Positions 5,809 to 62,900 are shown, counted from the first letter of the stretch. The stretch: DNA of 64,000 bases from Candidatus Thorarchaeota archaeon (GCA_963726195.1 CAVSBO010000003.1:387011-451010), one strand, 5' to 3'. The notes: a model not told the origin generated them from the letters alone. Numbers and translations: made by a program.

Positions 5809-6775
5809 CTATGGCGAGGCCTTGAGCACTACGTAGACCTCGAATGTATCGCGCTCTCTGACGAATGTGACACGAAGCTTGGCGCCCACTTTCCTTTTGG
5901 CAATGATGCCTCTGAGCTCTTCCATGCCCACGACCTTGCTTCCGTCGATTGCCACAATGACATCTCCAGGTCTCAAACCCGCCTTGAGCGCAGGTCCCCT
6001 TTGAAGCTCAATCAATAACGCCCCTTCATCAACATTAAGTCTGATAGTGTGATGCAATCCCCTTGTTGAGAGTAACTCCAACAATGCCCATCCAAGGTGA
6101 CTGCACCGTGCCTGTTTCGATAAGCTCCTCAAATACGTCCTTGATTCGATCCACTGCAAGGGCAAAGCCAATTCCCTGGCTCCACGGTATCATGGCCGTT
6201 GGCATACCGATTAGCTTACCTTCCGTGTCCACGAGGGCTCCTCCGGAGTTGCCGGGATTGATCTGAGCAGAGGTCTGTATCAGACCCTCAAGAAAGGCCT
6301 CTTCACTCTGAATCGTTCTTTCGAGGGCGCTTATCATGCCGAATGTGACAGTGGTGCCAAGTCCTAGGGGGTTACCAACTGCTATCGCAAATTGACCAAC
6401 CTTCAACTTGCTCGATTCGCCCAACTCAATCGGAACCAGTTTCTTCGCATCTATCTTTAGAACCGCGAGGTCTCTCGATCTCGACTGACCAACCAGAACA
6501 GCCTTGAAAGCTTCTCCGTCAGACATGGTTACGCCGATGTCTCTAGCTCCTTCCACAACGTGTGCATTGGTGACAATGAAACCTTTCTCGGTCAAGACAA
6601 CACCTGAACCTTGACCTTGCACTGGGACTATCTGGGACATCTGTACGCGTGCCAGAGCGACTGTAGACACACTCACTACACTAGGAATGACTTTCTCGAC
6701 AACCTCTACGAATCTTGATTCGAGTTCCTTCATCATCGGGTCTGACATGGTTCCACTGGCAGCATGTTCCCGCAT
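5809..6775 (-). CDS. HtrA/DegP-family serine protease with PDZ domain, reading frame interrupted
   Basis: ORF 6035-6775 has the trypsin-fold triad contexts TNAHVV, DLAVLK and GNSGGALV. The PDZ domain (GLRPGDVIVAIDGSKVVGMEELRGIIAKRKVG) continues in ORF 5809-6171 in a different frame. The frames switch at about 6040-6060 (..GVTLNKGIASHYQT* versus ..HHTIRLNVDEGALLIEL). Confidence 0.8.
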
Positions 6776-6796
6776 ATTAACTTGAACATCTGCACT

Positions 6797-6885
6797 TAGG
6801 GTCTGTCAATGTGGGAGTGTAGTTTTGATAAAGATAAGAAATTAGAGAAGTATAGGGTCTGTCAATAGGGGACTCAGGGGGGAGG
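6797..6885 (+). repeat. two direct copies of motif R1 (TAGGGTCTGTCAAT, the second extended by a G-string)
   Basis: TAGGGTCTGTCAAT occurs at 6797-6810 and 6853-6866. The second copy continues AGGGGACTCAGGGGGGAGG. A third copy is at 7661-7688. The 5' half resembles the S-gene terminator hairpin arm GGGGTCTGAAAT(A/G)GAC. Confidence 0.6.
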
Positions 6886-6903
6886 AATATTCTGTCCTCA
6901 ATG

Positions 6904-6945
6904 ACTGTCCACAGGCCATGCCGACAATTGACAAGGAAGAAAAAG
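6904..6945 (+). repeat. motif R3 copy (ACTGTCCAC..GGCCATGCCGAC..TTGACAAGG)
   Basis: GGCCATGCCGAC at 6914-6925 recurs as GGCCATGCCAAC at 8605-8616. Both copies are followed by TGAC..AGGAAGAAAAAG. Weaker relatives are at about 8079-8100, about 8271-8300, and in the S1-S2 spacer (AGACATGGCCAGCACAATCTC, 12493-12513). Confidence 0.5.
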
Positions 6946-7452
6946 TGATAAGATAGAAAAAACTGGAGAGAACTGAAATGAGAAGAAGCACGTCAAGATC
7001 ATGATTATAATTGTGTGTTTGATGATAAAAAGTAAGATGTAAGAAGGGAAATAGAAGTAAAAGAAAAATAAAAAAAGGAAGGAAAAAAAAAAAAAAAGAG
7101 AAAATAAAGTAAGATAGAATGGAAAGAGAGAAGAGAAAAAAATAGAGAAAAATGTAATAGAAGGAGGAGTTAAAGAGAAAAAAGAATATGAGAGAGAGAT
7201 TAAAGGATGAGATAAAGATGAATATAAATAAGAAGAAGAGAAAGATAATAAAAAAAAAATAAAAAGAAGAGATGAATGATATGAAAAGATAAAGGAGAAA
7301 AAAAAGAAGAAATGGATAGGAGAATGAAAAAAAATAGATAAAGAAATGAATAAAAAAAAAAAAAAAAAAAAAAGGAAGTATATGAATAGGGGATAAGAAT
7401 TAGATTTATAAAAGTAAATAGTATATGAAAAGGAGATATTTGGAATATACTA

Positions 7453-7640
7453 CTATGCTCGCATAGGCATAACCTGATTGATATGACTAGTTACTTGGAC
7501 ACGTCGTTCTAATAGTGAGATATACCTACGGGGAAACAACTGATAGCGTATATTTGGTCTTAACACTAAATAAGATCAGGCAGAACTAGCATAGGAATGT
7601 TACGTGTGACAACCAATCTCGGTTAGGAGTTATAAGAGAG
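7453..7640 (+). repeat. R2 copy 1: homolog of the surface-gene 5' region, with no gene behind it
   Basis: Shares ATTGATATG (7477-7485), GACACGTCG and TACGGGGAAACAAC with the S2 upstream region (ATTGATATG 12594-12602, GACGAGTC, TACGCGGGAAACGA 12643-12656). Ends in GTGACAACCAATCTCGGTTAGGAG, which resembles the S2/S4 Shine-Dalgarno region (GTTCAGGAGAG / GTTTAGGAGAG). It is followed by an R1 copy instead of a coding sequence. Confidence 0.6.
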
Positions 7641-7660
7641 ATTAATAAGTTATATAAATA

Positions 7661-7688
7661 GAGGTCTGTCAATGGACTCAGAGGGGGA
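7661..7688 (+). repeat. R1 copy 3 (GAGGTCTGTCAATGGACTCAGAGGGGGA)
   Basis: Direct match to the 6853-6885 motif. Compare the S3 terminator GGGGTCTGAAATGGACCCTGCCTCCCC: the first 17 nt are closely similar, then the terminator's pyrimidine tail is replaced here by a purine G-string. Confidence 0.6.
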
Positions 7689-8600
7689 AAGAACAACGAA
7701 CTATCAGAGACGAAGAAAGAAAAAAGAAAAGGAATGCTGATGAGATCCTAATAAAAGAAGAAAAAGAGAAAGAAGAAGGGAAGAAAAGGAGAGGAAAAGA
7801 GAAAAATAGGAAAGAGAAAGAATAAAAAAAAAAAAGAAGAAAAAAGGGAAAAAGAGATGAGAAAGAGAAAGAGAAGGAGATGGGAAAGAAAGGAAAAGGA
7901 TATGAAAAAAAAAAGAGGTATATAGATATACTCAGAGGACTATACGCAGTGAAAAATGGGTCAAAGAAAAAGAGAAAGAAAGAAAAAAAAAAGAAAAGTA
8001 AAAAGAAGAGATATAAAAGTAAGAGAAACTAGAAATAAAAAATGAGAACACGCCGTTACTGGTGTGACTGAGCTATACCAAGGCCAAGCCAACGACAGGC
8101 TTAGCGATGAGAACACGACAAAAAAAAAAAAAAAGAAAGAAGAAGGAAAAGGAAGAAAAGGAAAGAGAAAGAAAGAAAATATAGAAAAAGGAGAAATGTA
8201 AAAGAAGAGAAAAATAAGAAAAGAAGAAAAAGAGAGATAATATAAATAAGAGTATGCCGAAGCTCTAGAATGAAACTGTCCACGCTGCTTGACAGATAAG
8301 AAAAGATGACAAATCCTATCTTCAAATAGGGATTTGAGAAGAATTGGTATTGGTAGAATATGTACCTGTGACTGAATGGCCACGGACTGATGAAATATAC
8401 CTTTGTGACAGGACTTTATGTGCTGACAGAGAAAATGGGCGCTCAATCACTGTCGGAGATGTGTCTGCAGAGATAGATAGAAAGAAAGAAGGAGTGAAAG
8501 AAAAAAAGAAGAAAAAGAGAAAGAAAGTAGGTGAAAAGAAAAGGAGAGGGAAAAGAAAAAGAAAAGAAGGGAGAAAAAAAGACAATGACAAAGATGTCAA

Positions 8601-8637
8601 ACACGGCCATGCCAACTGACGAGAGAGGAAGAAAAAG
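8601..8637 (+). repeat. motif R3 copy
   Basis: ACACGGCCATGCCAACTGACGAGAGAGGAAGAAAAAG matches 6911-6945. Confidence 0.5.
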
Positions 8638-8666
8638 CTCGGACCGTGAGAAGAGACCATGAATCT

Positions 8667-8923
8667 CTATGCTCTAGGCATAACCTTGATATACTGTGTC
8701 CTTTGACACGTCGTTCTAATTGTGGATTTCCCACGAAACAAACGAGTTAGCTTGATTCTTGCCCGAACTAGGCAAAATAAAATGAGAGAAAAGAAAAAAA
8801 AAAAGAAAAGAGAGGAGAACTAGCATTGTTCCGTGGTGACACAACCAATCTCGAGAGAGGAGACTTAGCGAGAGATGGTCTTGCTGAACATAGCATTGTT
8901 CCGTGGTGACACAACCAATCTCG
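8667..8923 (+). repeat. R2 copy 2: surface-gene 5'-region homolog with an internally duplicated 3' end
   Basis: TATGCTCTAGGCATAACCTTGATATACTGTG..GACACGTCGTTCTAAT..GATTTCCCACGAAACAAACGA is collinear with 7453-7560 and with the S2 upstream region. The unit AGCATTGTTCCGTGGTGACACAACCAATCTCGA occurs twice, ending at about 8853 and at 8923. Confidence 0.65.
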
Positions 8924-8965
<42 letters not shown>

Positions 8966-9065
8966 GTTGTTCTAACTGGGATTGACAGAAACAAATAGTC
9001 TAAGAGGAGAGAAAAAAAAAGTCAAGAGAAAGAATAGAAAAGTGAAAGGGTGACACAACGGAGAG

Positions 9066-9202
<137 letters not shown>

Positions 9203-9712
9203 ATAGAAAGAGAAAGACCAACTACCACAACAGGCACCACAACTACCTCCACAAGCAGCACAACAACGAGCACTCAGCCACCGAAGGCAAAACCCTCTAC
9301 TGAAGGAGCAGTCGGCGCCAATGAGGTCAAGCCTCTAGTGAATGCTGAAAGAAGAAGTCGTGAGGATACAGAATCGGAAGAGAGGGAACAGAAACGGGCA
9401 CAGACACAACAGACCAATGAACAAACAGACAACAGGACACAAAAGAAAGAAGGAAAGAAGAAGAAGAAAACACACAAAACAAAAAGGAAAACGGACAAAA
9501 GACATAGAACGATGAGCATGACAAACAAGGATAGCAAAATTGAAACATGGAATGAGAAACGAATCACAAAAAAAAAGAGAAGAAAAGGAAAAAAAGAAAA
9601 AGAGAGAAAAAAAAGAGAAAAAAAAAAAAGAAAGAAAAAGAAAAGGAGAAAAGAAAAGAAAAAAAAAAAAAAAAGAAAAATGAAAGAAAAAACAAATCCG
9701 GGAGAGACACAT

Positions 9713-12328
9713 ATGAAAACAAAGCACGTCATGATTGTTCTATTTGCACTCATACTCTTTCAGGCAACTTTGTTCACAGGGACACAGCTCACTGCCAGCA
9801 ACAGCCGACAGTCAGCTGGCAACACAGCAATCCAGCCTCCGGCTCAGACCTCAGGAGCAGGTGGCGAGAATCCCCTCATTACTAATGTGGTACAAGGTGG
9901 TGGCTTCGAGACAGCAGATTCCGCTGGCTCCCCCAGCTACTGGAGTTCCTGGGGTACCCAATACGCTAAAACCAACACTACGTACACAGCGATCAAATAC
10001 GGAGGCAGTTATTCTGGTGAAGCGGAGTGCAGGGGGACTTCCCAGTGGTGGGGGTCAGGCGAATTGATTTACAACGGTTACTCATCAATGCCCCATCTTG
10101 TCGCGGGACTCAACTTTACTTCCTATACCTACTTGGTATCAAATCCAGATCTGGCCAATGGCGGGAGAATCGACATTGTGGTCGAGACATACAATCCAAG
10201 CCATGCATTAATCTACTACCTTTCCTATTCGTCTTCATGGAAACCCACGAATGACTCATTCACTGCATACTTCTTGTCGAACTGGTCGATGGGCTCATGG
10301 CAAAGGTTCTCTCGGAATGTGACAGCCGATTACATGACTCGTTTCGGAACACCTCCTGCGAACTGCTACGTGACCTATACGGCATGGCAGGTCTATTCAC
10401 CCGCAAACCCCAAGGGTCTAACGGAGGTCCTTGCAGATGATCATTCTCTGACGAACAGAACTGCATACATCTACACTCCTAACGGTAACTTCGAGTCCGG
10501 AGACGGCAATCATTGGGCTATTGATGATACGTCTCCATGTAGTGTACTGCTCACCACGGACCACACGGAAGGCTCATTTGCAGCCAATATGAGTGCCAAA
10601 AGCGTCATGGCAGGCGGCTATGGTTATGCGGGCATGTCGCAGAGTTACTCCTATCCTCGTGGACTGTACGTCTCGCAGCCCGGGACCGGAGTATTGAGCT
10701 TTGATTGGAAGTACACCGAGACGTACAACGGCGGCTGGGGTCAGGATGCATACATCTACATCTATGCTCAGAACAATACGAGGTCTTTACAAGTGTACTT
10801 GATGATTGGTACAAGCTTGGATTACTTCTCGTACTCAAACTCGTCCAGCCTAATGTACATCAAAGCTTCAGGGTTCGGAAACAACGGGACTTGGCAGCAC
10901 GAAGCGATAGATCTCCATGCCCTCTTCCAAGAGTACAACGTCAGTAGCCTCGTCATAACGGATTACGAATTCGAAGTGGACATTTCAGCCAATGCGAACT
11001 CATCGTCCAACTTGTTGCTGGACAAATTCCGACTCCTGAACTATCCCACACTTGATCCAGGGTTCGAACAGTTCAGGACCTGGTCACCAAGTGACCCAGT
11101 CCCCACCTGGTGGCAGACCAACGCAGGTTATCCCTACATAAACCGGACATCGTTTGCTCACAGCGGCAACTGGGCTGCTAACATTACATCTTACGGAGGA
11201 GTGCCCGCCGGGCTCGACAGAGGACAGTACGTGAGTATCGATGGATCAATCTACACGGACTTCTGGTATCAAGTGAAGAGCACCACTTCGGCTAGCGAGA
11301 GCGTTGCCTATATCGAACTCTATTTCGATTCCGGGGTATGGATATACTACTTGCTGGCAGCAACCAGCATTTATCCCGCGACAAACAGCAGCGACTCTGT
11401 TTACTACTATGTTGATGGCTTCAACCAGACTGGCACATGGAGGAACCTTGTTCGAAACGTGAAGGCAGACTTGGAAGCGGCGTTTGCACCGACTTCATGG
11501 GTTCTCGATACCGTTGAGATGGTCTGCTATGGTGCTGTGGGAGGAACAGTATCTGTCATATTTGATGACATGAACTTCGTCGTAGATACTCATCCTCCAA
11601 CGATAAACCAAGTGCTGAGGAACCCCATAGCCCCAATGTACCATGATGCGGTGCAGGTCACAATCAACGCTACTGATGTCCTGTCGGGCGTGGCTCATGT
11701 CTATGTCTACTACCGAATAGGGACTGGCTCGTGGAGCATATTGACTGCTACCATGTCAGGAGGACTCTACCATGCATCCATTCCTACTCAGTCGTACGGA
11801 GCAAGTGTCTCCTACTATGTGAATGCCACGGACAACCTTGGCCATGTCGCCGTCGGTAGCACCTTCTCGTACGTGCTTGGCGATGACATTGCGCCTGTGA
11901 TTGACTCAATCAGCCCTATCAACAATACAGTTGTCAGCGGTTGGAAATTCGTAAACGTCACGACGCACGACCCAGGTGTTGGCTCTAGCGGCGTCTCACA
12001 CGTGGAACTCTGGTCCGGAAGTAGCCTTCTCGCGAACACCAGCTCTGCACCTTACCAGCTTCACTGGAACACTCAACTCCTGACCAACGGGACCCATACG
12101 CTCACAGTGAGAGTAATGGACAGGGCCGGGAATATGGCATCCGTCATACTTCATTATGATGTCGAGAACGCCCAGACTACCACAACTACTTCGACGACTA
12201 GTACCACGACTACTACCACGAGCGGTACTCAGACTACCACAGGTCCCCCCTTCCTACTCATTGGCGTAGTCGGCATAGTTGCAGTCATCATTGTGCTGGC
12301 TTTGGTGCTGAAGAGTAGAGCTAAGTAG
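9713..12328 (+). CDS. cell-surface glycoprotein paralog S1 (intact)
   Basis: ATG 9713 sits behind GGAGAG and aligns with the paralog starts (MK.KHVMIVLF..LFQ..LFTGT). After the signal peptide come three jelly-roll modules, each opening with a G-F-E motif (QGGGFETADS, PNGNFESGDGNHW, LDPGFEQFRTW), like CBM4/9-type domains. These are followed by Ig-like domains (DDIAPVIDSISP..GVSHVELW..APYQLHWNT..NGTHTLTVRVMDRAGN). The C-terminus has a Thr-rich linker, GPPF, a hydrophobic helix and a KSRAK tail. There are many N-x-S/T sequons. Confidence 0.85.
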   Translation: MKTKHVMIVLFALILFQATLFTGTQLTASNSRQSAGNTAIQPPAQTSGAGGENPLITNVVQGGGFETADSAGSPSYWSSWGTQYAKTNTTYTAIKYGGSYSGEAECRGTSQWWGSGELIYNGYSSMPHLVAGLNFTSYTYLVSNPDLANGGRIDIVVETYNPSHALIYYLSYSSSWKPTNDSFTAYFLSNWSMGSWQRFSRNVTADYMTRFGTPPANCYVTYTAWQVYSPANPKGLTEVLADDHSLTNRTAYIYTPNGNFESGDGNHWAIDDTSPCSVLLTTDHTEGSFAANMSAKSVMAGGYGYAGMSQSYSYPRGLYVSQPGTGVLSFDWKYTETYNGGWGQDAYIYIYAQNNTRSLQVYLMIGTSLDYFSYSNSSSLMYIKASGFGNNGTWQHEAIDLHALFQEYNVSSLVITDYEFEVDISANANSSSNLLLDKFRLLNYPTLDPGFEQFRTWSPSDPVPTWWQTNAGYPYINRTSFAHSGNWAANITSYGGVPAGLDRGQYVSIDGSIYTDFWYQVKSTTSASESVAYIELYFDSGVWIYYLLAATSIYPATNSSDSVYYYVDGFNQTGTWRNLVRNVKADLEAAFAPTSWVLDTVEMVCYGAVGGTVSVIFDDMNFVVDTHPPTINQVLRNPIAPMYHDAVQVTINATDVLSGVAHVYVYYRIGTGSWSILTATMSGGLYHASIPTQSYGASVSYYVNATDNLGHVAVGSTFSYVLGDDIAPVIDSISPINNTVVSGWKFVNVTTHDPGVGSSGVSHVELWSGSSLLANTSSAPYQLHWNTQLLTNGTHTLTVRVMDRAGNMASVILHYDVENAQTTTTTSTTSTTTTTTSGTQTTTGPPFLLIGVVGIVAVIIVLALVLKSRAK

Positions 12329-12344
12329 TGGGAAAACCGAAAGC

Positions 12345-12381
12345 GCGGGGTCTGAAATAGACCCTGCCTCCCATCCTTTTG
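12345..12381 (+). terminator. hairpin plus pyrimidine/T-run terminator after S1
   Basis: GCGGGGTC-TGAAATA-GACCCTGC forms an 8-bp stem with one G-U pair, followed by CTCCCATCCTTTT. It lies 17 nt after the S1 stop. Near-identical elements follow S3 and S4. Confidence 0.6.
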
Positions 12382-12584
12382 ACATCTCCATCTGCTGTCG
12401 AGCCGCACCCAGACCCGTCGAATTCATGATGACGATATCACTCTACCCCGATGTGGATACGAGTGCACTTGTTGGAAAATGATGTGCATGTCAGACATGG
12501 CCAGCACAATCTCACACATGGATTTTCGAGAATGAATCCCCTACGCAGTTGGCCACTAGCAACAATCGAGATAACATGTCATTT

Positions 12585-12720
12585 CTACGCAACATTGATA
12601 TGTAGGACTGTCGACGAGTCAAGTTGTAAGATTTCCACAATGTACGCGGGAAACGATTTGCCCAAACTTGACATTAGCCCATAGCCGCGGGACCGGTCTT
12701 CAAGTTCAGGAGAGATGCAT
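12585..12720 (+). promoter_or_regulatory. conserved surface-gene 5' region (candidate promoter/5' UTR) of S2
   Basis: Contains ATTGATATG (12594-12602), a possible TATA-like box about 125 nt upstream of the start, and GTTCAGGAGAGATGCAT before the ATG. Both elements are shared with S4 and with the R2 repeats. No TSS data are available. Confidence 0.35.
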
Positions 12721-15700
12721 ATGAAAGCAAAGCACGTCATGATTGTTCTGTTTATGTTTATTCTGTTTCAGGGATTTCTGTTCACGGGGACACCGTCGAC
12801 TGCCGGCACCAAAGGACAGGCAGCGGGTGGCATAGCAGTTCAGGCTCCGGTTCAGATCGCAGGAGCAGGTGGCGAGAACCCACTCGTGACCAATGTGCTG
12901 GAGGGAGGGGGCTTCGAGCAGGTCCAGAGCATGGGGTACCCTTCAGAGTGGAGCTCCTCTGGTTCTTGTGACCTCAGCCAGAATGCTTCCTATACGGGTC
13001 TCACATACGGCGGTTCGTACTCTGGTCAGATTGTTGCAAGGGGAACGCCACAGTGGGGGGGTAGCTCAGGGATGTTCTATCGTACCTATCAGCTTTCTTC
13101 AAGGCCGTATTTGACTCAGGGAATCAGCATTGACCTCTACACGTACATTGTTTCCAACCCTGATTTGGCAAGAAATGGTCAGTACTATATCCGCGCTCAG
13201 GTTTGGACCCCCAGTGGCTATCGCAACGTAGTCTACTATATGTCCTTTAGAGTTGGATATTCGCTAGGCAACAGCTCGCAAACTGTCAACTTCGCACTGA
13301 ATACCACAATCGGCTATTGGAGCCATCTGCAGAGAAACATGACCGCAGACTTTGAGTCAAGATTTGGCGCGGTTCAGAGCGGCTCCTACATCTACGAAAT
13401 TGATTGGCTAACCTATTCGCCTTATGGCTCAACAGGCCCCACGGAGGTTGTAGTAGATGAAGTCAATCTCTACAATCGAACTGCCCATGAGTTACTCCTG
13501 AACGGTGACTTCGAAGACGGTGACGGATCCCACTGGGACACAAGCTATGGCTCCCCCGGGTATGTCTATACCACTTCGGACTGTACAGAGGGCTCGCGTG
13601 CCGCCAACCTCACGGTCAGGGCTGCACAAGCAAACGCATGGGGATACGCATACATGGCGCATTGGTACAGTTATCCTCAAGGCCTGTACGCGGCAGAGCC
13701 CGGTAGCGGGGTTGTATCATTTGACTGGAACTACCGGGATACGAACAACGGCGGCTCTGGACAAGGTGCATTTCTCGAAATCGATGTGGGAAACCAGACA
13801 TACTCCTGCACCGTCTTGGTTTTCTTGGGTCAGGACCTAGACTACTTCCCCAGTGAGAACTATACCAGCACCGTATACGTGAGAGCTTCTGGGTTCGGCA
13901 GCAGAGGAACTTGGGAACATCAGTCAACCGATCTCGGTGCATTGTTACGACAGAGGAACATCACTGATGTGACAATAGAGGACTTCATGTTCTATATCCA
14001 GACCTCAAGTCGGGCGAACTCATCAGCCACATTGCTGCTCGACAGTTTTGAATTCCGGACGTATCCTACAATTGACCCTGGATTTGAACAAGACTGGTAT
14101 TGGTCAACGAGTAGTCCCGTCACAGGCTGGTGGACGAGCGGTGCTGGGTACCCGTACGTTAATCGAACATCATTCGCCCACACTGGCAATTGGGCGGCGA
14201 ACGTCACGGCGTATGGGGGCGCAGCCGGAGGACTCTATAGGACCCAATACGTCGAAGTCGATGCATCGATTTTCACAGACTTTTGGTACCAGTTAATGGA
14301 TACGACCTCGGCCAGTGGCAGCATTGCCTACATCATGCTCTATTTCTGTTCAGGGCAAACGATTTGCTACCTGCTTGCAGCAAGTAGCGATTACTCCCCG
14401 ACGAACAGCAGTGACACCGTCTTCTACTATGTCGATGGGTTCAACCAGACTGGTACATGGAGGAACCTAGTTCGCAACGTGAAGACAGACTTGAAACTGC
14501 ATTTGCTCCGACCGCATGGATTCTCGATCAAGTCAGTATCTACTGCTATGGAAGCGGAGGAGACAGACTATCTGTAATCTTTGACGACATGAATTTCGTT
14601 TCTGACACGCATGCGCCCAACTTCACATTCGTGGGCCTTGACGGACACGAACCCACGTACTACAATGAGGCCACCGTAAGGATTAACCTGACCGAATTGA
14701 GCCCCGTCACCACTGCAGTTTACTACAACAACGGATTGGGCTGGGTGAGAACGCTGGCTGCAAATATGGGCAGGGACTTCCTTGCCTACATTCCTAAAGG
14801 CCCCTACGGAACAGTGGTTCACTGGTATGCCAATGCAACCGACAACTGGGTCACAGTGCAATCGATAACAATCACGGCAGCTACTTTCATACATAATCGG
14901 AGACGACATCCCCCCTGTGATTGACTCGATTCGACCAAAGAACAGCACCGTTGTCACGGGTTTGAACATAGTGAAGGTAAACACAAGTGATCCCGGTGTT
15001 GGTTCAAGCGGCATCTCGCACGTTGAACTCTGGCTTGGGTCTAGCCTTCTTGCAAACGACAGCTCTGCACCGTACCAACTTCTATGGAATACTCGGCTAG
15101 TGGGTAATGGGACTCACACATTGACAATAAAGACAGTGGACAATGCGGGTGAGTCATCTACTGGACATCTGTATGTTGACGTTGAGAATGACGTGGCAGG
15201 GCCATCGATTTCGGGGGCGGTGGTCAACCCATCCCATCCAGAGGTTCATCAGTCGGTGACAGTCTCTGTAGGAGTAGCTGATGTTACGGGCGTTGCGAGT
15301 GTCACACTCTACTACAAGGTGGGAGCAGGAGACTGGCAGACTCTGCCAATGAGCGCATCGGGTGCACTATACAGTGCAATAATCCCGGGCGCTGACTACG
15401 GGAAATCCGTGTCATTCTACATTGTCGCAATCGATGTGTTCGGTCAGCCATCCACTTATGGGTCCGTGGTCAGCCCTCAGACTTACGGTGCTGTTGACAC
15501 GATTGATCCGACGATTGGAGTGACAGGTCCTGTGGCAGGAAGCAAGATAATAGGGCTTGTTCGCTTCAATGTGTCGGCTACGGATAGCGGAAGTGGAATT
15601 GCCAACGTGACTTTCCTAGTCGATGGCTCCGAAGTTGATATGAGCACGGCCACACCGTGGGTATACGAATGGAATACTGGCTCTGTCGCGAATGGCTTGC

Positions 15701-15909
15701 ACACGATACGATTCACGGCAGGAGACAAAGCTGGGAACGTCGTGTCAGTGTCAATTCAGTATGACATCGAGAACCCTCAAGGCCTTGATGCTGTAGGCTA
15801 CGCGCTGCAGAGTTTCATGTCCCAGTTCGGGATTGTCGTGGGAGTTGCAGCTGTTCTGGGACTGGTACTTGTGTTCAAACTGATCATGGCTAGGAGGCAG
15901 ACCAAGTAG
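12721..15909 (+). pseudogene. cell-surface glycoprotein paralog S2, frame disrupted (2 lesions)
   Basis: ORFs 12715-14577, 14457-14924 and 14917-15909 are collinear with S1. Frame switches are at about 14495 (one G missing relative to S1, GACTTGAAACTG versus GACTTGGAAGCG) and about 14888. Extra Ig-like repeats are present. The C-terminus is a TM helix plus ARRQTK. ATG 12721 aligns with the S1 start. Confidence 0.8.
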
Positions 15910-15933
15910 GATTACTCGTGGAGGAAAAAAAGA

Positions 15934-18900
15934 ATGAGAAAGCACGCTATTGTCTTATTGATGGCTCTGGTTATCGTGATACAAGGAGTTCTCGTCACCG
16001 GAATTGTCCAGCCGAAAGCCGGTTCCCTGACGCAGAACGTGCCTCAACACGAGAACGTCTACCAATCAGCAGGCTTGCCTGGTGAGAAGCCTTTGCTGGC
16101 CAACGTACTTCCCAATCCAGGATTCGAGCAAGTTGACTCCTACGGAGGACCGCTCCAGTGGAATTACTATGGCTCGGCCTATACTGGATCAAACGCTTCC
16201 TATACGGGACTAACCTACGGCGGATCCTACTCCGGTCTGTTGGAGGCAATGGGAACACAGCAATGGGGAACGGATGCGTACATGTACCGTTACTTGACAA
16301 GTGCGCCCTTTGCTATGCTTTCGCAGCGTATTATTCTCAACCTGTTCTGGGACGTCCGTCAGAATCCGGATATTGCAAGGTGGGCTTATGCATACATACG
16401 ACTCGAAATGTATAACGGCTCGACTGGTTCTACATCTACTATGCGCTCTCTTTCGGCAATAACGTCGGTTCCAACAGCACGCACTCCTCATGGATACGCC
16501 TTAACAACACCCTTGATGCTTGGCATCAATTGAACAGGAATGTCACCTCCGACTTTGAGAAATGCTTCCTTATGCCAGTACCAACGAACATGATGCTCTA
16601 TGACATGTTCTTCTATGCCGTATCACCCCAACAAGCCACTGGAAAAATAACCATGGTAATAGACGAAATCAGTCTCAGGAATTCGACACTATACGAGTAC
16701 TTGCTCGATAGCAATGGCAACTTCGAGATGGGAAATGGTGCCAACTGGAATACGAAATCGTCGTATGACCCGGCCCGAGTTGCCTTGACCGCCGAGCATA
16801 CCGAAGGGAATCATGCGGTGAACATGTCCTGTTCTGCAAGTGGCAGCGGGTTGAATCGCTATGCTTCTCTCTACCAGTATTCCTACCGTGGGCTCTTCAC
16901 CGAACCGGATGGCTTGGTCGTTCAGTTTGACTACATGTACAAAGATGCTCAAGGAGGGGGAACGGGTCAGTATGCCTACGTGTACGTTTCCTACTCCAAC
17001 AGGAGTATCAGTGGGAACGTCTTTTGGTACTTGGGCAGGGGCTCAGACCTCTTTGATGACGTCAATTCGACGTACTATTGCTACACGAGGGCTGATGGTT
17101 TCGGCTCACGAGGCGTTTGGCATCATGTCACAGCAGACGTCGGAAGCCTTCTCAAACAGAATCATATAACGAACGTTGCCGTTCAATATCTCACGTTCTA
17201 CGTCAACGCGGGTTCAAGTGCCAATTCCTCGGTCCAACTCTTGGTCGACAGGGTCTCGGTCGTGACGGACCCTCTCGGGGATCCGGGCTTCGAACAGGAC
17301 ACGAATCTGTACTTCGGTCCCGTACCATCATGGGATATCTGGAGTGGAGGGGCACCAACGTCAGTCAGACTGCGAGCGCTCGGACCGGGAAATGGGACGC
17401 GAACTTGACTGCCTATGGCGGAACTTCAGCAGCCATCTACCGATCGATGTGGCTGGAAATGGATTCATCCGTGTTCACAGATTTCTACTGGAAACTCGAT
17501 TCTTCGCCATATGCCTCGTCTACCTATGTCGTGGTGAGGCTCAGTTTCCAGGGAGGCTATGAGGTCAACTATGTGCTGGCGAACGTGGGCGGCTCCTACT
17601 CTAATAGCAGTTGGCAGGCAACATACTATGCCTCAGGGCTGAATCAGACAGGAGTCTGGAACAGACTATACAGAAATCTCACTTTGGATTTCACGTCGGT
17701 CTTTGGCACGCCTGTCTCGAGCTGGAATCTGACACAGTGTGTTCTCGACGCATATGGCGGCAGTTCTGGCGGAAAGATTCAGTCCTGTTCGACGACATGA
17801 ACTTCCTTGACAAACAGGGTCCCACTATACGTCAAGTCTTGAGAACCCAATAGTTCCGATGTATCATGACGTAGTCAAGGTGACAGTCAATGCGACCGAC
17901 AACTTGGCAGGCGTAGGCCAAGTCTGGCTGTATTATCGTCAAGGCGCTGGCCCGTACACCGTCGCTAGTGCTGTGAAGTCCGGGGGACTCTACCAGGCGT
18001 TCATACCTCCTGAGTCATACGGTATTCCCATCTATTACTACGCCAATGCAACTGACAAATGCGGCTCAATCACTACGACTAGCAGCTTCTCGTATGTGCC
18101 CGGCGACGATGTCGCCCCTCATGTCGAAATCCTGTCACCCGATCAGAGCGATGTGCTGACAGGGACTGTGGTCATTAATGCAAGCGCCTATGATGCTGGC
18201 AGCGGGGTGGCTTACGTGCTTTTCCGGGTTGACGGAAACCTCATCGCCAACATTTCAGCAGCACCGTACGAGTATGCTTGGAACAGCCGTCTGGTCACGA
18301 ACAGCATGCACACTATCCAACTAACAGCCTACGATGTCGCTGGCCTGCCTTCGTCCACCTCGGTGGGCATCTCAACCGCGAACGACTTCTCGCCCCCAAT
18401 GCTATCAGGAGTACATCTCAACCCGGCAGTTCCTCAGTACGGCCAAAACGTTGTGGTCTACGTTGCAGTCACTGACCAATCCGGTGTGCATAGCGTGGTC
18501 CTTCATCACAGGATAGATTCTGGATCCTGGACAGCTACTGCAATGAGCGCATCAGGCGCCCTCTACGAGGCTGTCCTAGGCTCGGACGTCTACGGGACCA
18601 GGGTGGAATACTACGTAGTCGCGATGGACGTCTACAACGCCTCTGTCTCGATCGGTTCTCAGAGTTCGCCAATGTTCTACATCGTTGGCGACACCACGAA
18701 CCCAACAATCAGTGTCAGCGGACCGTCAACAGGCACCCCGCTTGGGGGCACAGTGTGGTTCAGCGTGTCCGCAAATGACGGAATCGGCGGAGCAAGCGGC
18801 TTGGGCAGATTCCTGTTCTTTGTAGACGGCACACTGGCTGGGAATAGCTCGACTGTTCCAAGCAACTTCACTTGGGCTACGACATCCGTGTCAAACGGAT

Positions 18901-19121
18901 ACCATACCCTCACGTTCCGTGTCGTTGATCGCGCAGGCAATCCCGCATCTGTCAATCTAACGTACTATGTGGCCAACGGGGTAATTGACTTCGGACCCGT
19001 CATGTCCTCTTACGGATTCTTCATCGGAGCAGGCGGCACTATCGCAGTCATAATAGTGGTCAGCATTCTATTGAAGAGAAGAGCGCGAAGTAAGACAAAC
19101 GATCCAGAAAGCGGGGTCTGA
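15934..19121 (+). pseudogene. cell-surface glycoprotein paralog S3, frame disrupted (4 lesions)
   Basis: ORFs 15934-16533, 16530-17408, 17117-17800, 17611-17853 and 17859-19121 are collinear with S1/S2. Frame switches are at about 16420, 17350, 17778 and 17844 (AGAACCCA where AGAAACCCA is needed). The gene starts 24 nt after the S2 stop, behind GGAGG. The C-terminus is a TM helix plus KRRARSK. Confidence 0.8.
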
Positions 19122-19147
19122 AATGGACCCTGCCTCCCCTCTTTTTG
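19111..19147 (+). terminator. hairpin plus T-run terminator after S3
   Basis: GCGGGGTC-TGAAATG-GACCCTGC followed by CTCCCCTCTTTTT. The S3 stop codon (GGGGTCTGA) lies inside the 5' arm. Confidence 0.6.
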
Positions 19148-19195
19148 ACATTTTCATCCATCAATTCAACAGTCTTCCACCGACTTTCATACGCT

Positions 19196-19329
19196 TGACG
19201 CAATCTTGATATGTCATGTTCGATTAGCGTGATTCTGTTACCATATTGGCATTGCAGTATGAGAGTAGCCTTGCCAATACCAAGGTTTTCCTTGGTGGAG
19301 TAGTCTCTAAGTTTAGGAGAGAATGCTAC
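19196..19329 (+). promoter_or_regulatory. conserved surface-gene 5' region of S4
   Basis: CTTGATATG at 19205-19213 and GTTTAGGAGAGAATGCTAC before GTG 19330, homologous to the S2 5' region and to the R2 repeats. Confidence 0.35.
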
Positions 19330-21901: not shown

Positions 21902-21917
21902 CTCGATAATCGAAAAT

Positions 21918-21955
21918 GCGGGGTCTGAAATAGACCCTGCTTCTCTCCTTTTTTC
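21918..21955 (+). terminator. hairpin plus T-run terminator after S4
   Basis: GCGGGGTC-TGAAATA-GACCCTGC followed by TTCTCTCCTTTTTT, 17 nt after the S4 stop. Confidence 0.6.
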
Positions 21956-45850: not shown

Positions 45851-45893
45851 CAGTCTGTCCCGCTCCGATTGCGATCCATCATGCTTGTGGCTG

Positions 45894-56222: not shown

Positions 56223-56419
56223 ACTGGACACACTCTCCTGCTACTTAATCTTGATGGCATCTCTTGTACACGCGCTCGCACAGTCGAAACAGTGTGTGGA
56301 GAGGTCAGTGAATTCGACGGCCCTCCGTCTTGAGAGCGACATGCCGCATTGTGCATAACGTTGAGATATATCCATCCTCGGCGTATGTATCCAACTAGTT
56401 AGGAGGTACCTAGACCAAG

Positions 56420-58212
56420 ATGAGTAAGATACTGAGAGTCAACATGAATGACCTCAGCTTCAAATGGGAGAAGGTCAAGCCTGAGCAGGAGCAGCTTGCT
56501 GGCCGTGCTTTCACTTCGACAATCGTGTCTACGGAAGTTGATCCCACGTGCCATCCGCTTCGCGAACGCAACAAGTGAGTTGTTGCGCCGGGTCTGCTCG
56601 CTGGGTCAGCCGCACCTTCGTCCGGGAGGCTGAGCGTCGGCGCGAAGTCACCGCTCACCAGCGGGATAAAAGAGTCTAATGCAGGCGGCATCACAGCAAC
56701 TAAGCTGGGCTGCATTGGAGTGAAGGGTATCATCATTGAGGGCGCCCCGCCCAAAGGTACGACTGATTGGTACAGCCTCTTTGTGGGCAAGGACAAGGCC
56801 GAGATTCTGAAGAAGAATGAGTATGCCGGATTGGGGTGCTACGACCTGATAACGAAAGTCTGGAAGGACTTCCCATCGAAACCGGGCGTTATCGGATGCG
56901 GAATTGCCGGACAGCGCTTGATGAAAGCAGCTGGCATCTTTGGGAACAACGTTGAGAACACCGACCCCGGCAGGTATGCAGGTCGTGGCGGCATGGGTGC
57001 GGTGCTTGGTTCGAAGCGGATTGTCGCAATCATAAGTGACGACACGGGAGGAACATTACCGGCGCCCAAGGACAAGGCCCTCTTCGATAGCGGGAGAAAG
57101 CTCTTGCTAAGGCGCTCGATGCTCAAGCAGTAACGGGGATTCTAAAGGATGCTAAGGGCAAACCGTTCGGTGCGCTCAAGAATTACGGGACGAATGTACT
57201 TCAGAACATTCTCAACGAAGCTGGTGCTCTTCCAACCAGAGCTTTCAGTGCCGGGCGTTTCGAGAATGCGGCCAAAATCAGTGGAGAAGCCGTACATGAG
57301 CTTGTTGACAAAACGAATGCGAAATTCGGTGCCAAGGCAGAAGGCAAGTATGGTCACCCCTGCCATGTCGGTTGCATAATGGCTTGCTCCAATGCTGTCC
57401 CATATGAGGATACAGGCAAGATGCATGTCTCGCCGCTTGAGTACGAGACTGCATGGGCCTTGGGCAGCAACCTCGGCATCGGCGTCTTGCAGGACGTAGC
57501 AGAATTGAACCGGCTATGCAACGACCTCGGGTTGGACACAATTGAGACTGGAAACACGCTTGCTATGTTTATGGAATCAGGAATGATCAAGTTCGGCGAT
57601 GGACCAGCTGCTATTGCCGCCCTGAAAGAAGCATACAATCCCAAGTCCTACCTTGGAAGATTGGTATCCTCCGGCGCCTCAAGCGCTGGTCACGTGCTGG
57701 GAGTGACACGGATTCCTGTAGTTAAGGGACAGTCATTGCCTGCGTACGACCCGAGACCAATACGTGGCATCGGTGTGACCTATGCGACTACTCCGATGGG
57801 AGCAGACCACACCTCAGGCTACACGATAGCCGCGGAGATACTCGGAATCAAAGGTAAGGTTACTGACCCCAGAGAACTCAAGAAGGCAGACCTCTCGCGC
57901 GCGTTCCAAGCCACTACTGCATACATCGATTCCAGCGGCTACTGCTTATTCATTGCGTTCGCGGTCCTCGATATTGACGAGGGATTCAAGGGAATGACAG
58001 ACAGCGTGGACGCGTTCCTCGGTAAGAAGATCGATGTGACGGAGTATGGAATGAAGGTATTGAAGGCTGAGCGCGACTTCAACAAGCGAGCAGGGTTCAC
58101 GGAGCGTGACGACCGTCTACCTGAGTTCTTCCGAACAGAGAAGCTTCCACCCCATAACGTCACATTCGATGTCTCCGATGCAGATATCGACGCAGTCTAC
58201 AAGGGAACATAG
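56420..58212 (+). pseudogene. aor: tungsten-type aldehyde:ferredoxin oxidoreductase (AOR family), disrupted by an in-frame TGA and one frameshift
   Basis: ATG 56420 sits behind AGGAGG. Motifs are AAPSSGRLSVGAKSPLTSG, IGCGIAGQ, RYAGRGGMGAVLGSKR, KNYGTNVLQNILNEAGALPTRAF, GHPCHVGCIMAC, EYETAWALGSNLG and LGLDTIETG. The in-frame TGA is at 56576-56578. The frame switches at about 57090-57100 (ORF 56720-57133 to the frame of ORF 57379-58212). Confidence 0.85.
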
Positions 58213-58670: not shown

Positions 58671-58673
58671 GCG

Positions 58674-58928
58674 ATGGGGATGCAGGTTAACGTCAAACTC
58701 TATGCAACACTTCGTCAGTTTGCGCCGCCTGGTACCGCGATAGGGGAGTCCTTCAAAGTAGAGGTGATGGAAGGCAATATCTCTGAGATAATTGCTAGAC
58801 TTCGTTTTCCACCCGATCAGGCACGTATAATCTTCGTCAATGGCGTCCGCACTTTTGACCTGAATCAAAGACTGTCCGATGACGATCTCGTCGTCTTCTT
58901 TCCTCCCGTCGGCGGAGGCAGTGCTTAG
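58674..58928 (+). CDS. MoaD/ThiS-family beta-grasp protein ending GGGSA
   Basis: 84 aa: VNVKLYATLRQF......FKVEV.EGNISEII..L.........IFVNG......QRLSDDDLVVFFPPVGGGSA. It starts 3 nt after the preceding stop. Confidence 0.65.
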   Translation: MGMQVNVKLYATLRQFAPPGTAIGESFKVEVMEGNISEIIARLRFPPDQARIIFVNGVRTFDLNQRLSDDDLVVFFPPVGGGSA

Positions 58929-59911
58929 TCAACCATATGCGTTGTCGGTCTCATGTTGTCAGACAGACTCGATGTGTGCACACATTTGTGCCCTGGCCAT
59001 CCACGTATCTTTGAACTGAGACACTAATGGCTCACTGTGTCGTGAAGAATGCCAGCAAGCGCCCCCTCGGAGTCCGACCTCGCCATAGTTGCGGGCGATT
59101 GTATACGATGCGATTACTCGCGGGACGAAGCGGATAACGTCCCGATGTCGATGAACAGGCGGGTAAAGCTTTATTAGCATTCGATACATACATGTTAGTG
59201 AAGGCGATACTGCCTCAACATGATACATCGTATCTACCACAATTGAATCGGGGAGTACGGATTTCGACTATGGGCTTTCAGCTCGTTGAGTCGGATCCCC
59301 GTCTTGCCGACGTGTCGATACACGCCTATCTCAATCGCAGATGGTAGCACTGCGGATTCGTGTTGGCATGTTCGTGCTGACATGAATACATTACAGCAGT
59401 CCGCTTTCTATCATGCCATGGAGGTGAGATAGGTAGTGGGCAAACACAACAATCACACCAGCAGGTCTCGTGGTGACAGGCGCAACCGTCAGAACTCGGA
59501 GCAACCGACCGCGACGCACAGTACTGCGCCAAGGTCTGGTCAGAACCAGGGTTCGACCACGAGAACACAGCCAACTAGTCGACGGGCATAGTGAGTAGGA
59601 CAATCCGATCTCACAGCTCGTAACTAGAGCTGCAAGGTCAGCTAGTGGCTCATCGAGCCGCTAGTTCCTCAAGCATCTGCGGGCCCAGCGATGAGCAATC
59701 GTTGGGTCTGCTGATGCTGCTTTTTCTATTTCGTGTACGTTGCATCGGTGGCTCGCAGTTTCTGGTTTGTTGTTCTTTTGCGCCGACAGAGCTGAACAAC
59801 CTCCGATGATGAGTGTCGGAAACAATATATCCCGGAGAAGGATAAATCAGGACTTTGCGTGGGCTGGCTTCTTGACAGGGAGACAGACTAAGTGAGACAC
59901 TAGGCATACTC

Positions 59912-62900
59912 ATGTCAGACTTTAGGAAACAACGAGTCAAGGGCAGCATCGCAAGTCTCGCATTTCTGGCTTGCTTTTTGATGGTATTCACTGTGATCCC
60001 GCCTGCTGCGGCGGCCACTGGCAGTTACTCTGAGAACTTCACTACCGGAACGTACCGGGATACTGGGGCTACTAATGCCACCGGCTGGGGCAGCGGATCT
60101 GTCAAGCTCCCCAACAAGTCGGCCACCGTGGTCGGCACCTGTGGCACCAGCGAAACGCGGGAGGTAGCGGTGCAGGGCGCCTATGCTTACGCGGCCGACT
60201 ATCACTCGGGATTGCGAATCATCAATATCACAAACCCAAAGGCGCCCAGCATCGTGGGCACTTGTCCAACCACCCAAGCAGAGGGGGTAGCGGTGTCGGG
60301 CTGCTACGCTTACGTCGCCGACCACGACTCGGGGTTGCGAATCATTAATGTCACTAACCCCAAGGATCCTACCCTCGTGGGCACCTGCTCCACAAACGGG
60401 GCAATGGGGGTGGCTGTGGCGGGCTGCTATGCCTATGTCACCGTCGGGAACCAGGGTTTGCGGGTCATTAACATCACCAATCCGAAGGCTCCGACCATCG
60501 TCGGCACCTGTCTTACCATCTGGGCGATGAAAGTAGCGGTGGAAGGTTGTTATGCCTACGTCGCCGACTTTCTCTCTGGGGGAGGTCTGAAAATCATCAA
60601 TATCACGAGTCCAAAGGCTCCTACGCTCGTCGGGACCTGTACCCTCAGCGGCGCGGCAGTAGGGGTGGCTGTGGCGGGCTGCTATGCCTACGTCGCCGAT
60701 GAAAACGTGGGGTTGCGGGTCATCAATGTTACCAATCCCCTGATTCCCACGATTATCGGCACTTGTCCAACCACCTATGCGTATGGTGTAGATGTGGCGG
60801 GCTGCTACGCTTACGTCGCCGACTGGGACTCGGGGTTGCGAATCATCAATGTCACCAACCCCAAGAATCCTATTCTCATCAGGACCTGTCTGACCACCGA
60901 GGCACAAGGGGTGGCTGTGGCGGGCTGCTATGCCTACGTCGCCGACGGCACCGGCGGATTCTGCGTAGTGCAGATTGCAGACCTCGTTCCGCCTGCCTTA
61001 GAGGGCACCAAGGCCGTTACTGGCGTTCTCGTATGCCGTGTCGGTGTCGGGCCACTACGCCTACATTGCTAACGATGACAGGGGCCTGCGCGTCATGAAT
61101 GTAACCGATCCCAAGTATCCCACGGTCCTCGGTACTTACAACAGCCCGGGCCTTGCGCGGGCAGTTTGGGCGGACGGACGCTATGCCTACCTCGGGGATG
61201 CTGGCATAGGGTTGCACGTCGTAAATGTTACCAACCCCATGAGCCCCACCAAGATTGGCACCTGTACCACTAACGGCACGGCGTATGGCGTGTTTGTGGA
61301 GGGCCACTATGCCTATGTCGCTGAAGGAACCAAAGGGTTACGAGTAATCAACGTCACCGACCCGCGCAATCCCACTCTCGTGGGCACATGTGCCACCACT
61401 AGCGCGACAATCTCAGTGTGGGTGGCGGGTCACTACGCATATGTCACTGATTCCAGCTATGGGTTGCAGGTGGTCAACGTCACCGATCCTCGGCACCCCA
61501 TACTCCTCAGCAGCTCCCCCATGTCTGGCACTGCCCGGGGCGTATGCGTGCAGGGTCAGTATGCCTACGTCGCATGTGACGATGCTGGGCTGCGCGTGTA
61601 CAATGTTACCAATCCCAAGAAACCGGTCGGTATTGGCTGGTACGATACTCTAGGTCACGCATACAAGGTCTGGGTGGCTGGCAGGCAAGCTTACGTTGCA
61701 GACTATGACCAGGGCCTGGCGGTAGTGAACGTAACCGACCCTAGGCACCTCACCTTCCTTGGCGGCCTCAACATAGCTGGCAGCTTGGCGCGGGGGGTCG
61801 TTGTGGCTGGTGACCACGCTTACTTGGCTGATGAGAGTTACGGATTGGTCGTGGCGGAGGTGCAACGCAATCGGTGTCGACAATGCGAAGCACTAGCGAT
61901 CGCCCAGTCCGTGACGGTCTTCACGGCGACCGGTTCAGCTTCCCTAGCACGCGCTACGCTGACGTGCACCCAGAGCCTGCCCAGCAGCACCACCATCGCT
62001 TACTACTTGTCACCGGATGCGGGCGCCCATTGGGAGGCCGTGACAGCCGGCGTCGAGCACGTCTTCATCAACGTGGGCCATCAGCTGAAGTGGCGGGCAG
62101 TCCTAATCACAGCGGACACGCTGCAGACGCCGACCCTGACTAGCTTGGCCATCACGTACAAGACATGCTTGGACGCGCCCATTCTTATCTCACCTGGCGA
62201 CGGAGTGGGCACGAACGATAACAAGCCGACTCTCCAATGGACACCTCTGACTGGGGCCGCCAATTATCTGCTACAGGTGGACACCGTGATTACTTTCAAC
62301 TCCGGCAGTCTCCGGAACGTGACGGTGCCCGGGGGCACAACAAGCTACACTCCAATCTTGTCCTTAGCGGATGGCACTTGGTATTGGCGCGTTGCGGCTA
62401 TCGACTCGGCAGGCGATCTGGGCTATTGGTGCACCTATCGCACCCTTCTCATCGACACGGCTGAGCCGACTTGGGATCAGACACCCACGGATCTGGCTGT
62501 AGAGTTCGGAAGCGGCTTCCGATACGATCTGAACGCTTCTGACGTATCCGGCATCGACCACTATTCGGTGAACGACACATCCCACTTTGCCATTGATGGG
62601 GTTGGCCTTATCACAAACAAGACTGCATTGTCGGTAGGCGTATACGGACTGGAGGTGCGTGCCTATGATCCGTACACGAATTACTGCACTGCAAAGGTCA
62701 AGATCACCGTACACGATAGTCAAGGGCCCACCTGGGTCATCATCCCTAGTGACCAGCTTCTGATTTATGGACAGGCGCTGAAGTACCAGCTACAAGCTTG
62801 GGATCTGTCCGGCATTGACCACTGGAGCATCAATGACACAGTACACTTTGCCATCAGCAGCGCAGGCCTCATCACAAACGCCTCCAAGCTGGCGGTCGGC

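Follow-up and report, generated by a model that had tools for sequence, protein, structure and literature searches.

Split genes across a Thorarchaeota genome are very probably consensus errors clustered at a few short sequence motifs

In pseudogene-rich genomes, such as those of Mycobacterium leprae and recent endosymbionts, many genes are interrupted by frameshifts and stop codons; decaying genomes keep their core genes intact, carry lesions of many kinds and sizes, and have their broken genes under relaxed selection. Frame disruptions can also originate in the assembly itself. In unpolished Flye drafts of nanopore data, insertions predominate (one genome had 14,394 of them, against 439 deletions and 738 mismatches; PMC8011154), and about 70% of nanopore consensus errors were located in Dcm motifs when the basecaller had not been trained on methylation (PMC6591954). 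Indel frameshifts in long-read metagenome-assembled genomes (MAGs) have likewise been described, together with tools to handle them (PMC9262707; proovframe preprint, 10.1101/2021.08.23.457338).

The genome under study (G000), a Thorarchaeota (Asgard) MAG, consists of 19 contigs of up to 916 kb and has a marker completeness of 88.9%. The window is the whole stretch of 64,000 nt that was analyzed (CAVSBO010000003.1:387011-451010); it includes an A run of 135 nt, and another contig, C8, carries 1,531 consecutive T followed by 47 consecutive C. Three same-genus genomes were used for comparison: Thorarchaeota OWC5 (G002), OWC3 (G003) and G001. An earlier note on this DNA had described nine unrelated genes in the window whose reading frame is broken. 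All nine are indeed split, at or near where the note had placed the breaks, and each break is read through in a single frame by an intact orthologue from one of these genomes or from a close metagenome relative. The note's observation that both halves carry the family parts in the right order also holds, with Pfam assigning successive parts of the same families to either side: Trypsin_2 and then PDZ in HtrA, HMA and then E1-E2 ATPase, Hydrolase and YHS in copA, positions 1-75 and then 79-191 of adh_short in the SDR gene, AFOR_N and then AFOR_C in AOR, and LVIVD repeats on both sides in the LVIVD protein. Its total of 22 lesions becomes 23, including those of three paralogues in a surface-protein island (10 frame changes and the in-frame TAA at 19823). 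Rfam and tRNA scans of the window returned nothing.

Most of these breaks consist of one extra base, visible directly in codon-level comparison with OWC5. In the HtrA-type protease gene (5809-6775, minus strand), the Trypsin_2 part is in one frame and the PDZ part in another, with the change at 6038-6043 (about 6040), where the gene strand reads CAGaCT and OWC5 reads CAGCT. The DUF362 gene (22131-22994, plus strand) is split as the earlier note had said, with three +1 insertions rather than two lesions within 22300-22401: GAGAtC for the GAGAC of OWC5 at about 22304, and CAGaCT at about 22332 and again at about 22399. Their net shift is +3, and therefore the first and last open reading frames (ORFs) share a frame. 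The dolichol-kinase-like membrane gene (about 26820-27546, minus strand), a name that is the note's own since Pfam gives no family for either piece, has an extra base at 27026-27028 in the G run of GCGCgGGC on the gene strand; no other frameshift outside the island lies within a short homopolymer. In the copA P-type ATPase gene (31255-33898, plus strand), an extra A at 31696 (lesion 31693-31698) turns GAGAC into GAGAAC. The PhzF-like gene (35534-36470, minus strand) has an extra base at 36386-36396 (about 36389), with CAGCTCaGCT on the gene strand against CAGCTGGCC in OWC5, consistent with TAGCT misread as TcAGCT. In the SDR gene (36589-37390, minus strand), the gene strand reads CAGtCTG at 37137-37142 (about 37140) where OWC5 has CTGCTG, and the original sequence was probably CAGCTG. 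The winged-helix/TM gene (40673-41099, minus strand; lesion 40902-40907, about 40904) has GTtCTC on the gene strand against GTCTC in OWC5, and the same GTtCTC form breaks the LVIVD-repeat surface protein gene (59912-63131, plus strand) at 61025-61030, a junction that an 88%-identical JGI protein (P0265) crosses in a single frame as ...KAVTGVSYAV.... The AOR gene (56414-58209, plus strand) differs from the rest: it has an in-frame TGA at 56576-56578 and, at 57095-57101, lacks one base in GGGAGAAAGCTCTT, adjoining AGCT; no other lesion outside the island is net -1.

Splitting of this extent exceeds chance, because the same OWC5 query genes gave 0 frame changes in 10,532 aligned residues of G001 and OWC3 DNA but 7 in 11,781 aligned residues of the window, one of which lies in the upstream extension of a stop-to-stop query ORF and is not a lesion. 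This control replaced a reciprocal one, in which ORFs of the genome under study were compared with OWC5 DNA; the latter was confounded because wrong-frame tails of those ORFs match wrong frames of OWC5.

The load is not special to the window. When OWC5 ORFs from a 729-kb sample were aligned to the genome under study (579 genes, 192,129 aligned residues, 576 kb of coding DNA), 99 of the 579 genes contained 115 frame changes between them, or 0.20 per kb. The rate was even across the eight contigs for which 3,000 or more residues were aligned (0.16-0.29 per kb), and 93 of the changes (81%) were net +1 and 22 net -1. We consider it very probable that the frame disruptions are not part of the organism's DNA but arose as consensus errors in an error-prone long-read assembly, where they cluster at a few motifs. 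The profile of this genome, with about 0.2 one-base indels per kb of coding DNA throughout and four fifths of them insertions, is that of an under-polished long-read assembly, and the errors are systematic rather than random, concentrated at a few short sequence contexts. The sequencing platform was probably nanopore-like.

The earlier note had associated the shifts with short homopolymers, an association that does not survive at the scale of the genome: runs of at least 3 occur at 15% of insertion sites versus 19% of control coding positions. By contrast, 60 of the 93 insertions (65%) lie within 5 nt of an AGCT-type or GAGAC/GTCTC-type form, versus 6.1% of control positions. An unbiased k-mer scan showed enrichment of AGCTGA/TCAGCT (20-fold, p=3e-20), GAGAAC/GTTCTC (14-fold) and CAGACT/AGTCTG (12-fold). 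The AGCT class, a hypothesis formed on a first batch of events and then tested on a second, was replicated there (28/53 vs 5.4%, p=8e-22). AGCT is read as AGaCT or AGtCT, TAGCT/AGCTA as TcAGCT/AGCTgA, and GAGAC/GTCTC as GAGaAC/GTtCTC. For each motif, only about 1-3% of instances are affected, too few to give power to a test for depletion of AGCT and the other motifs relative to OWC5.

Other assemblies of the same DNA point in the same direction. A Logan contig (L076) from the public run ERR10755944, for which a literature search by accession found no paper, matches window positions 31178-34465 over 3,286 nt, without a mismatch and with two one-base gaps. It does not contain the A at 31696 that breaks copA, the one window lesion to which this comparison applies, and for copA it bears out the error reading of the earlier note. 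Less comfortably for consensus error, L076 has a frameshift of its own, as it also lacks the C at 31922 in GAGTCTC; an intact, 92%-identical JGI protein (P0255) breaks once against each assembly, at these two different sites. Similarly, an ENA-sourced HtrA variant (P0124), 99.4% identical before its shift and 100% after it, is frameshifted at about 6212, in an AGCTA site that is in frame in the window. In exact-protein look-ups, the other window gene products were recorded only from the MAG's own 916-kb contig, an absence that is uninformative because intact genes are also absent from the Logan contigs. The 25-kb JGI contig of a >90%-identical relative did not come up in a metagenome scan, whose best locus was only 78% identical.

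These motifs may be error-prone through DNA modification. Known restriction-modification systems of the AluI and BsmAI types recognize AGCT and GTCTC, and the genome encodes 16 matches to PF01555 (N6/N4 methyltransferase) at about 11 loci, plus one C5-methyltransferase-like gene. A k-mer bias of the basecaller or polisher without any modification would give the same picture. A bolder reading, which we hold only tentatively and regard as possible but somewhat doubtful, would make the error pattern a methylation footprint (AGCT with TAGCT/AGCTA, and GAGAC/GTCTC, modified by some of the genome's many N6/N4 or C5 enzymes); independently of this, the island paralogues may be genuine recent pseudogenes of a surface-protein family. 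If the footprint were real, the misassembled sites would map an Asgard archaeal methylome that nobody meant to measure.

The surface-protein island fits uniform consensus error less well. Its three paralogues (12691-21898, plus strand) of an intact Big_7/DUF7743 surface-protein gene (true start at about 9714, end at 12328) have 10 frame changes and one stop, TAA 19823, in 9.2 kb. This corresponds to about 1.1 lesions per kb, some 5 times the genome mean of 0.2 per kb, and the mix of signs also differs, half of the changes being net -1 versus 19% genome-wide. Additionally, only some of these lesions are located at error motifs, and the 15-kb island is not found in the syntenic parts of OWC5 and OWC3. 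It is therefore conceivable, albeit rather unlikely in our estimate, that most lesions are artefacts whereas the three paralogues are genuine decaying duplicates of the intact 9714-12328 gene. Several island lesions nevertheless show the CAGACT or GAGAAC forms (14486, 17366, 17841 and 19827), and the island adjoins low-quality sequence (the 135-nt A run and purine-rich junk), where the local consensus may simply be worse. Moreover, island lesions were localized against a paralogue of 33-55% identity, a guide too imprecise to assign their contexts reliably.

True gene decay throughout, with hundreds of real pseudogenes in a reduced genome or one under relaxed selection, appears very improbable. 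The deposited sequence does contain the lesions, and two of them are stop codons, as decay would have it. However, decay should spare essential single-copy genes, and the only SRP54 gene, of which the genome has no second copy, is split inside its GTPase domain (C16:78629), and breaks also affect primase PriL, a methionine aminopeptidase (M24) and two genes resembling UvrA and NuoD. Decay should also leave broken genes under relaxed selection, whereas their amino-acid identity is 83.8% versus 84.8% in unbroken genes (p=0.12). Events per gene follow a Poisson distribution by length (450, 80 and 14 genes with 0, 1 and at least 2 events, versus 449, 84 and 11 expected). As with artefacts, lesions are spread evenly over the genome, without regard to how important a gene is. 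Two observations lean the other way: lesions are somewhat less frequent in the most conserved third of genes (88-99% identity; 0.14 vs 0.22 per kb), and the ratio of mismatches at positions 1+2 to those at position 3 is slightly higher in broken than in unbroken genes (0.258 vs 0.219, p=0.007). Both sit awkwardly with consensus error; they may arise partly from misalignment near the junctions, and a small share of the broken genes may be true pseudogenes. Against decay also stand the nature of the lesions, nearly all one-base indels at a few motifs, the three compensating +1 insertions that lie within 95 nt in the DUF362 gene, the absence of the copA lesion from an independent contig that is mismatch-free over 3.3 kb, and the different frameshifts in other assemblies of the same DNA. 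The preference of the earlier note for indel-type sequencing error over decay is thus strengthened by the evenness of the load, its dependence on gene length and the breakage of conserved genes.

The in-frame stops, TAA 19823 in an island paralogue and TGA 56576 in AOR, had been regarded as two substitutions that fit sequencing error less well. Both are present, and they belong to a minor class. Genome-wide, tblastn alignments suggest 111-158 in-frame stops, a flood that is mostly not real, since the majority fall where a stop-to-stop query ORF extends beyond the gene at its 5' end or where a short patch is aligned out of frame. The alignment is good on either side of only 44 of them, most of which are close to the beginning of the query ORF; this leaves few in-gene nonsense changes; true nonsense substitutions within genes thus appear rare in this genome. 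At two stops elsewhere (C3:731554 and C3:547980), OWC5 has CTAG and the genome under study TGAG, which resembles the loss of one base and the gain of another within an error-prone motif more than a pair of substitutions.

Programmed recoding, in which the extra bases would be real and the ribosome would shift +1 at a signal, as in Euplotes or prfB, with selenocysteine at the AOR TGA, could draw on the 81% of net +1 shifts and their recurrent short motifs, but its probability is close to nil: the motifs are found in sense and in antisense alike (8 sense vs 10 antisense for GAGAAC, 12 vs 11 for AGCTGA) and therefore are not a translational signal, no more than about 1-3% of their instances are shifted, the original-frame stop is not adjacent, with original-frame ORFs continuing for between tens and more than 100 codons (in copA, the upstream ORF extends 110 codons beyond the site), the extra copA base is missing from another contig of the same DNA, and the OWC5 codon at the AOR TGA is TTT (Phe), not Cys.

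If the disruptions are consensus errors, about 1 in 6 genes of this Asgard MAG are split by them, which extrapolates to about 500 frameshifts in 2.9 Mb. The significance is then a caveat on the genome and not a piece of biology: gene calls, domain architectures, "truncated" or "fused" proteins, pseudogene counts, completeness and apparent recoding should not be taken here at face value, and further false "split gene" findings are to be expected elsewhere in the same genome. The motif signature AGaCT, TcAGCT and GAGaAC offers a cheap way to recognize such artefacts and, if modification-linked, would provide candidate methylation motifs in an Asgard archaeon.

Compared with decay of the Mycobacterium leprae type, this genome has a similarly large fraction of interrupted genes, whereas the sparing of core genes, the variety of lesions and relaxed selection are all absent. 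It is closer to published frameshifts in nanopore MAGs, where one-base indels split conserved genes genome-wide and lower marker completeness (here 88.9%, in 19 contigs); however, those accounts stress homopolymers, which show no enrichment here, and two thirds of the insertions in this genome occur in AGCT-, GAGAC- and GTCTC-type contexts. In this respect it resembles modification-mediated nanopore errors at Dcm CCWGG sites, which are also concentrated in a short motif on both strands. Unlike in the Dcm case, the modification is here one that we infer, the motifs are AGCT, TAGCT and GAGAC/GTCTC, and the errors are one-base insertions.

Each of the nine genes that the earlier note had listed as split is indeed interrupted in the window. 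When long ORFs translated from syntenic DNA of three same-genus genomes (G002, G003 and G001) were compared with the window by tblastn, the claimed genes were found in one open frame in a relative, whereas the window needs two: HtrA passes from frame -1 to -2 near 6041-6066, the dolichol-kinase-like gene (a name carried over from the earlier note, Pfam having given no family) from -2 to -3 near 27013-27104, copA from 1 to 2 at 31697, the phzF-like gene from -3 to -1 near 36387-36403, SDR from -1 to -2 near 37130-37140, the wHTH-TM gene from -3 to -1 near 40893-40903, and AOR from 2 to 1 at 57094-57112, with one in-frame stop in addition. The LVIVD gene has no orthologue in G002; other genomes of its genus and family have single ORFs (1,172-1,461 aa) that extend across the junction, as does the JGI protein P0265 (88% identical). 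In DUF362, tblastn returned one frame only, with four stops, and reading three frames revealed three successive +1 shifts (~22304, ~22332 and ~22399), so that the claimed split stands but the claimed count of two lesions does not. Since the halves of the split genes are consecutive parts of the same Pfam families and relatives have one frame, the observation of split genes is correct. Counting the paralogues of the surface-protein island (see below), the window holds 23 lesions (frame changes and in-frame stops).

The window is not special in its frameshift load. It occupies C3:387011-451010 of a 2.92-Mb genome (G000; 19 contigs, 88.9% complete), whose nearest named relatives are the Thorarchaeota MAGs OWC5 (G002) and OWC3 (G003), which identifies it as an Asgard archaeon; window 3.4-6.8 kb and 22-59.7 kb are syntenic with contig C35 of G002. 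Comparison of the long ORFs from 729 kb of G002 with the whole G000 genome yielded 115 frame changes in 99 of 579 orthologue-like genes (17%; 192,129 aligned residues), or 0.20 per kb, a lower bound because shifts in close succession, like the three in DUF362, escape detection by this approach. The rate was 0.16-0.29 per kb on the eight G000 contigs for which 3,000 or more residues could be aligned. In a control comparison, the same G002 genes showed no frame changes in 10,532 residues of G001/G003 DNA, versus 7 in 11,781 residues of the window, one of these 7 being an artefact of the upstream extension of the query ORF.

Gene decay, by which the frames would be broken in the organism itself, does not fit as the cause, because the single SRP54 gene is interrupted within its GTPase domain (beyond it, the family search matched only an FtsY-like paralogue with 30% identity), and it is well established that a free-living cell cannot do without SRP54. 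Also broken are primase PriL, an M24 methionine aminopeptidase, and one UvrA-like and one NuoD-like gene. Genes with 0, 1 and at least 2 events numbered 450, 80 and 14, against 449, 84 and 11 expected from a Poisson distribution by length, and 0.14 events per kb are still present in the most conserved third of genes. Identity to G002 was 83.8% for broken and 84.8% for unbroken genes (p=0.12), and a non-synonymous proxy showed only a small rise in the broken genes. The lesions are very probably sequencing or assembly errors, a reading already favored in the earlier note and now borne out by the genome-wide load, the Poisson distribution by length, the SRP54 hit and the absence of the copA lesion from a second assembly.

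The mechanism first proposed for such errors, indels in short homopolymers, was not upheld: once each frame change had been placed by frameshift-aware protein-to-DNA alignment, the insertions lay in homopolymers no more often than control coding positions did, and proved to be motif-specific instead. The net change is +1 in 93 of the 115 cases and -1 in 22. An unbiased k-mer scan around the lesions, with 40,000 coding positions as controls, found AGCTGA/TCAGCT enriched 20-fold (p=3e-20), GAGAAC/GTTCTC 14-fold, ACAGAC 15-fold and CAGACT 12-fold. At well-conserved sites, the extra bases (lower case) could be read from codon-by-codon comparison of G002 with G000: CAG CTT becomes CAG aCTT (AGCT to AGaCT), GTA GCT and AGC TAC become GTC aGCT and AGC tGAC (TAGCT/AGCTA to TcAGCT/AGCTgA), and GAG ACC and CGT CTC become GAG aACC and CGT tCTC (GAGAC/GTCTC to GAGaAC/GTtCTC). 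Such a motif form lies within 5 nt of 60 of the 93 insertions, versus 6.1% of controls; the AGCT class, derived from a first batch of events, was replicated in the second (28 of 53 versus 5.4%). Only ~1-3% of motif instances are affected, and at least 9 of the 11 window frameshifts outside the island belong to these classes. A translational signal is ruled out by the equal frequency of non-palindromic forms sense and antisense to the gene (8 and 10; 12 and 11), which points to a cause in the DNA or the sequencing.

In agreement with sequencing or assembly error, two comparisons show that three reconstructions of the same DNA disagree only at these motifs, and there by single bases. A search with a copA fragment retrieved a 655-aa product, identical to the window, that is encoded on a Logan contig of 3,286 nt (run ERR10755944). 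Aligned to window 31178-34465, this contig has no mismatches, and its only differences are two gaps of one base each. The copA lesion, an A at 31696, is missing from it (GAGAC, versus GAGAAC in the window), as is the C at 31922 (GAGTTC, versus GAGTCTC), where the Logan copA is broken instead; the intact 867-aa JGI relative P0255 (92% identical) shows one break against each assembly, at these two different sites. The HtrA variant P0124, which is listed from ENA and lies on a contig of 13.6 kb, shares 99.4% identity with the window before its shift and 100% after it. It loses its frame at window ~6212, directly 3' of AAGCT in AAGCTAATCGG, a site at which the window keeps its frame. Separately, the 442-aa product of window 38197-39525 is 99.5% identical to the Logan-derived P0130 (441 aa), and position-by-position comparison loses register from residue 140 onward. 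This suggests a one-residue indel, in which case the two reconstructions would in places be unequal by entire codons as well.

Most stops in the genome-wide alignments are artefacts of stop-to-stop query ORFs, and genuine nonsense changes within genes are few. In two of these, G002 CTAG corresponds to G000 TGAG, a pattern that resembles the loss of one base paired with the gain of another at a motif containing TAG. G002 has TTT (Phe) at the position of the TGA in AOR, which is therefore not a selenocysteine candidate.

True decay is a reasonable possibility in the island paralogues only. This 15-kb island (window 6.8-22 kb; 6800-22060) was not found in the syntenic parts of G002 contig C35 and G003 contig C83. 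Of its four paralogous Big_7/DUF7743 surface-protein genes, one is intact, and the other three together have 10 frame changes and one TAA stop (~1.1 lesions per kb, 5x the genome mean). Around the 14495 lesion of paralogue 1, CAGACT hexamers occur at 14446, 14486 and 14564 (three in 125 nt, ~0.1 expected), which suggests that several motif errors are stacked there. Upstream, window 6800-9713 is a 2.9-kb non-coding, purine-rich (A/G), low-complexity segment whose poly(A) tracts are 22, 38 and 135 nt long (the longest at 9066-9200), interrupted by two short repeated unique modules, GGGTCTGTCAAT...GACTCAG (~6801, ~6856 and ~7663) and CTAGCATTGTTCCGTGGTGACACAACCAATCTCGA (~8821 and ~8890). No such segment was found in 729 kb of G002, and this one is probably, at least in part, junk from the assembly. 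The adjoining 1,092-aa ORF (9050-12328) is inflated, its first ~220 codons being translated poly(A)/purine-rich tract; its likeness to the paralogues starts at ~9640-9700, and its real start is most likely ATG 9714 (MKTKHVMIVLFALILF, signal-peptide-like). Elsewhere, window 42607-48272 holds an apparent tandem duplication, which may be real or arise from assembly: a single G002 gene matches both 42607-43905 and 44540-45847 at 85-87% identity, and 43924-44391, which contains one stop, duplicates a fragment from the N-terminal part of the gene at 45891-48272.

Assembly quality can also be judged from contig C8, where 1,531 consecutive T residues lead straight into 47 consecutive C residues (114800-116377), an obvious assembly artefact, indicating that the assembly was not quality-filtered. 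G000 has 16 matches to PF01555 (N6/N4 DNA methyltransferase) at ~11 loci, and one C5-methyltransferase-like gene with five internal stops, probably reflecting several frameshifts. Examples among these methyltransferase genes are C15:113951-114556, C10:20759-21361, C4:214699-215599 and C16:149769-150515, and the one on C4 is itself frame-broken relative to G002. We infer both the sequencing platform and a link of the errors to DNA modification. In unpolished Flye drafts of nanopore data, insertions typically dominate the errors (PMC8011154), and consensus errors are documented to concentrate in methylation motifs that the basecaller does not know (PMC6591954).
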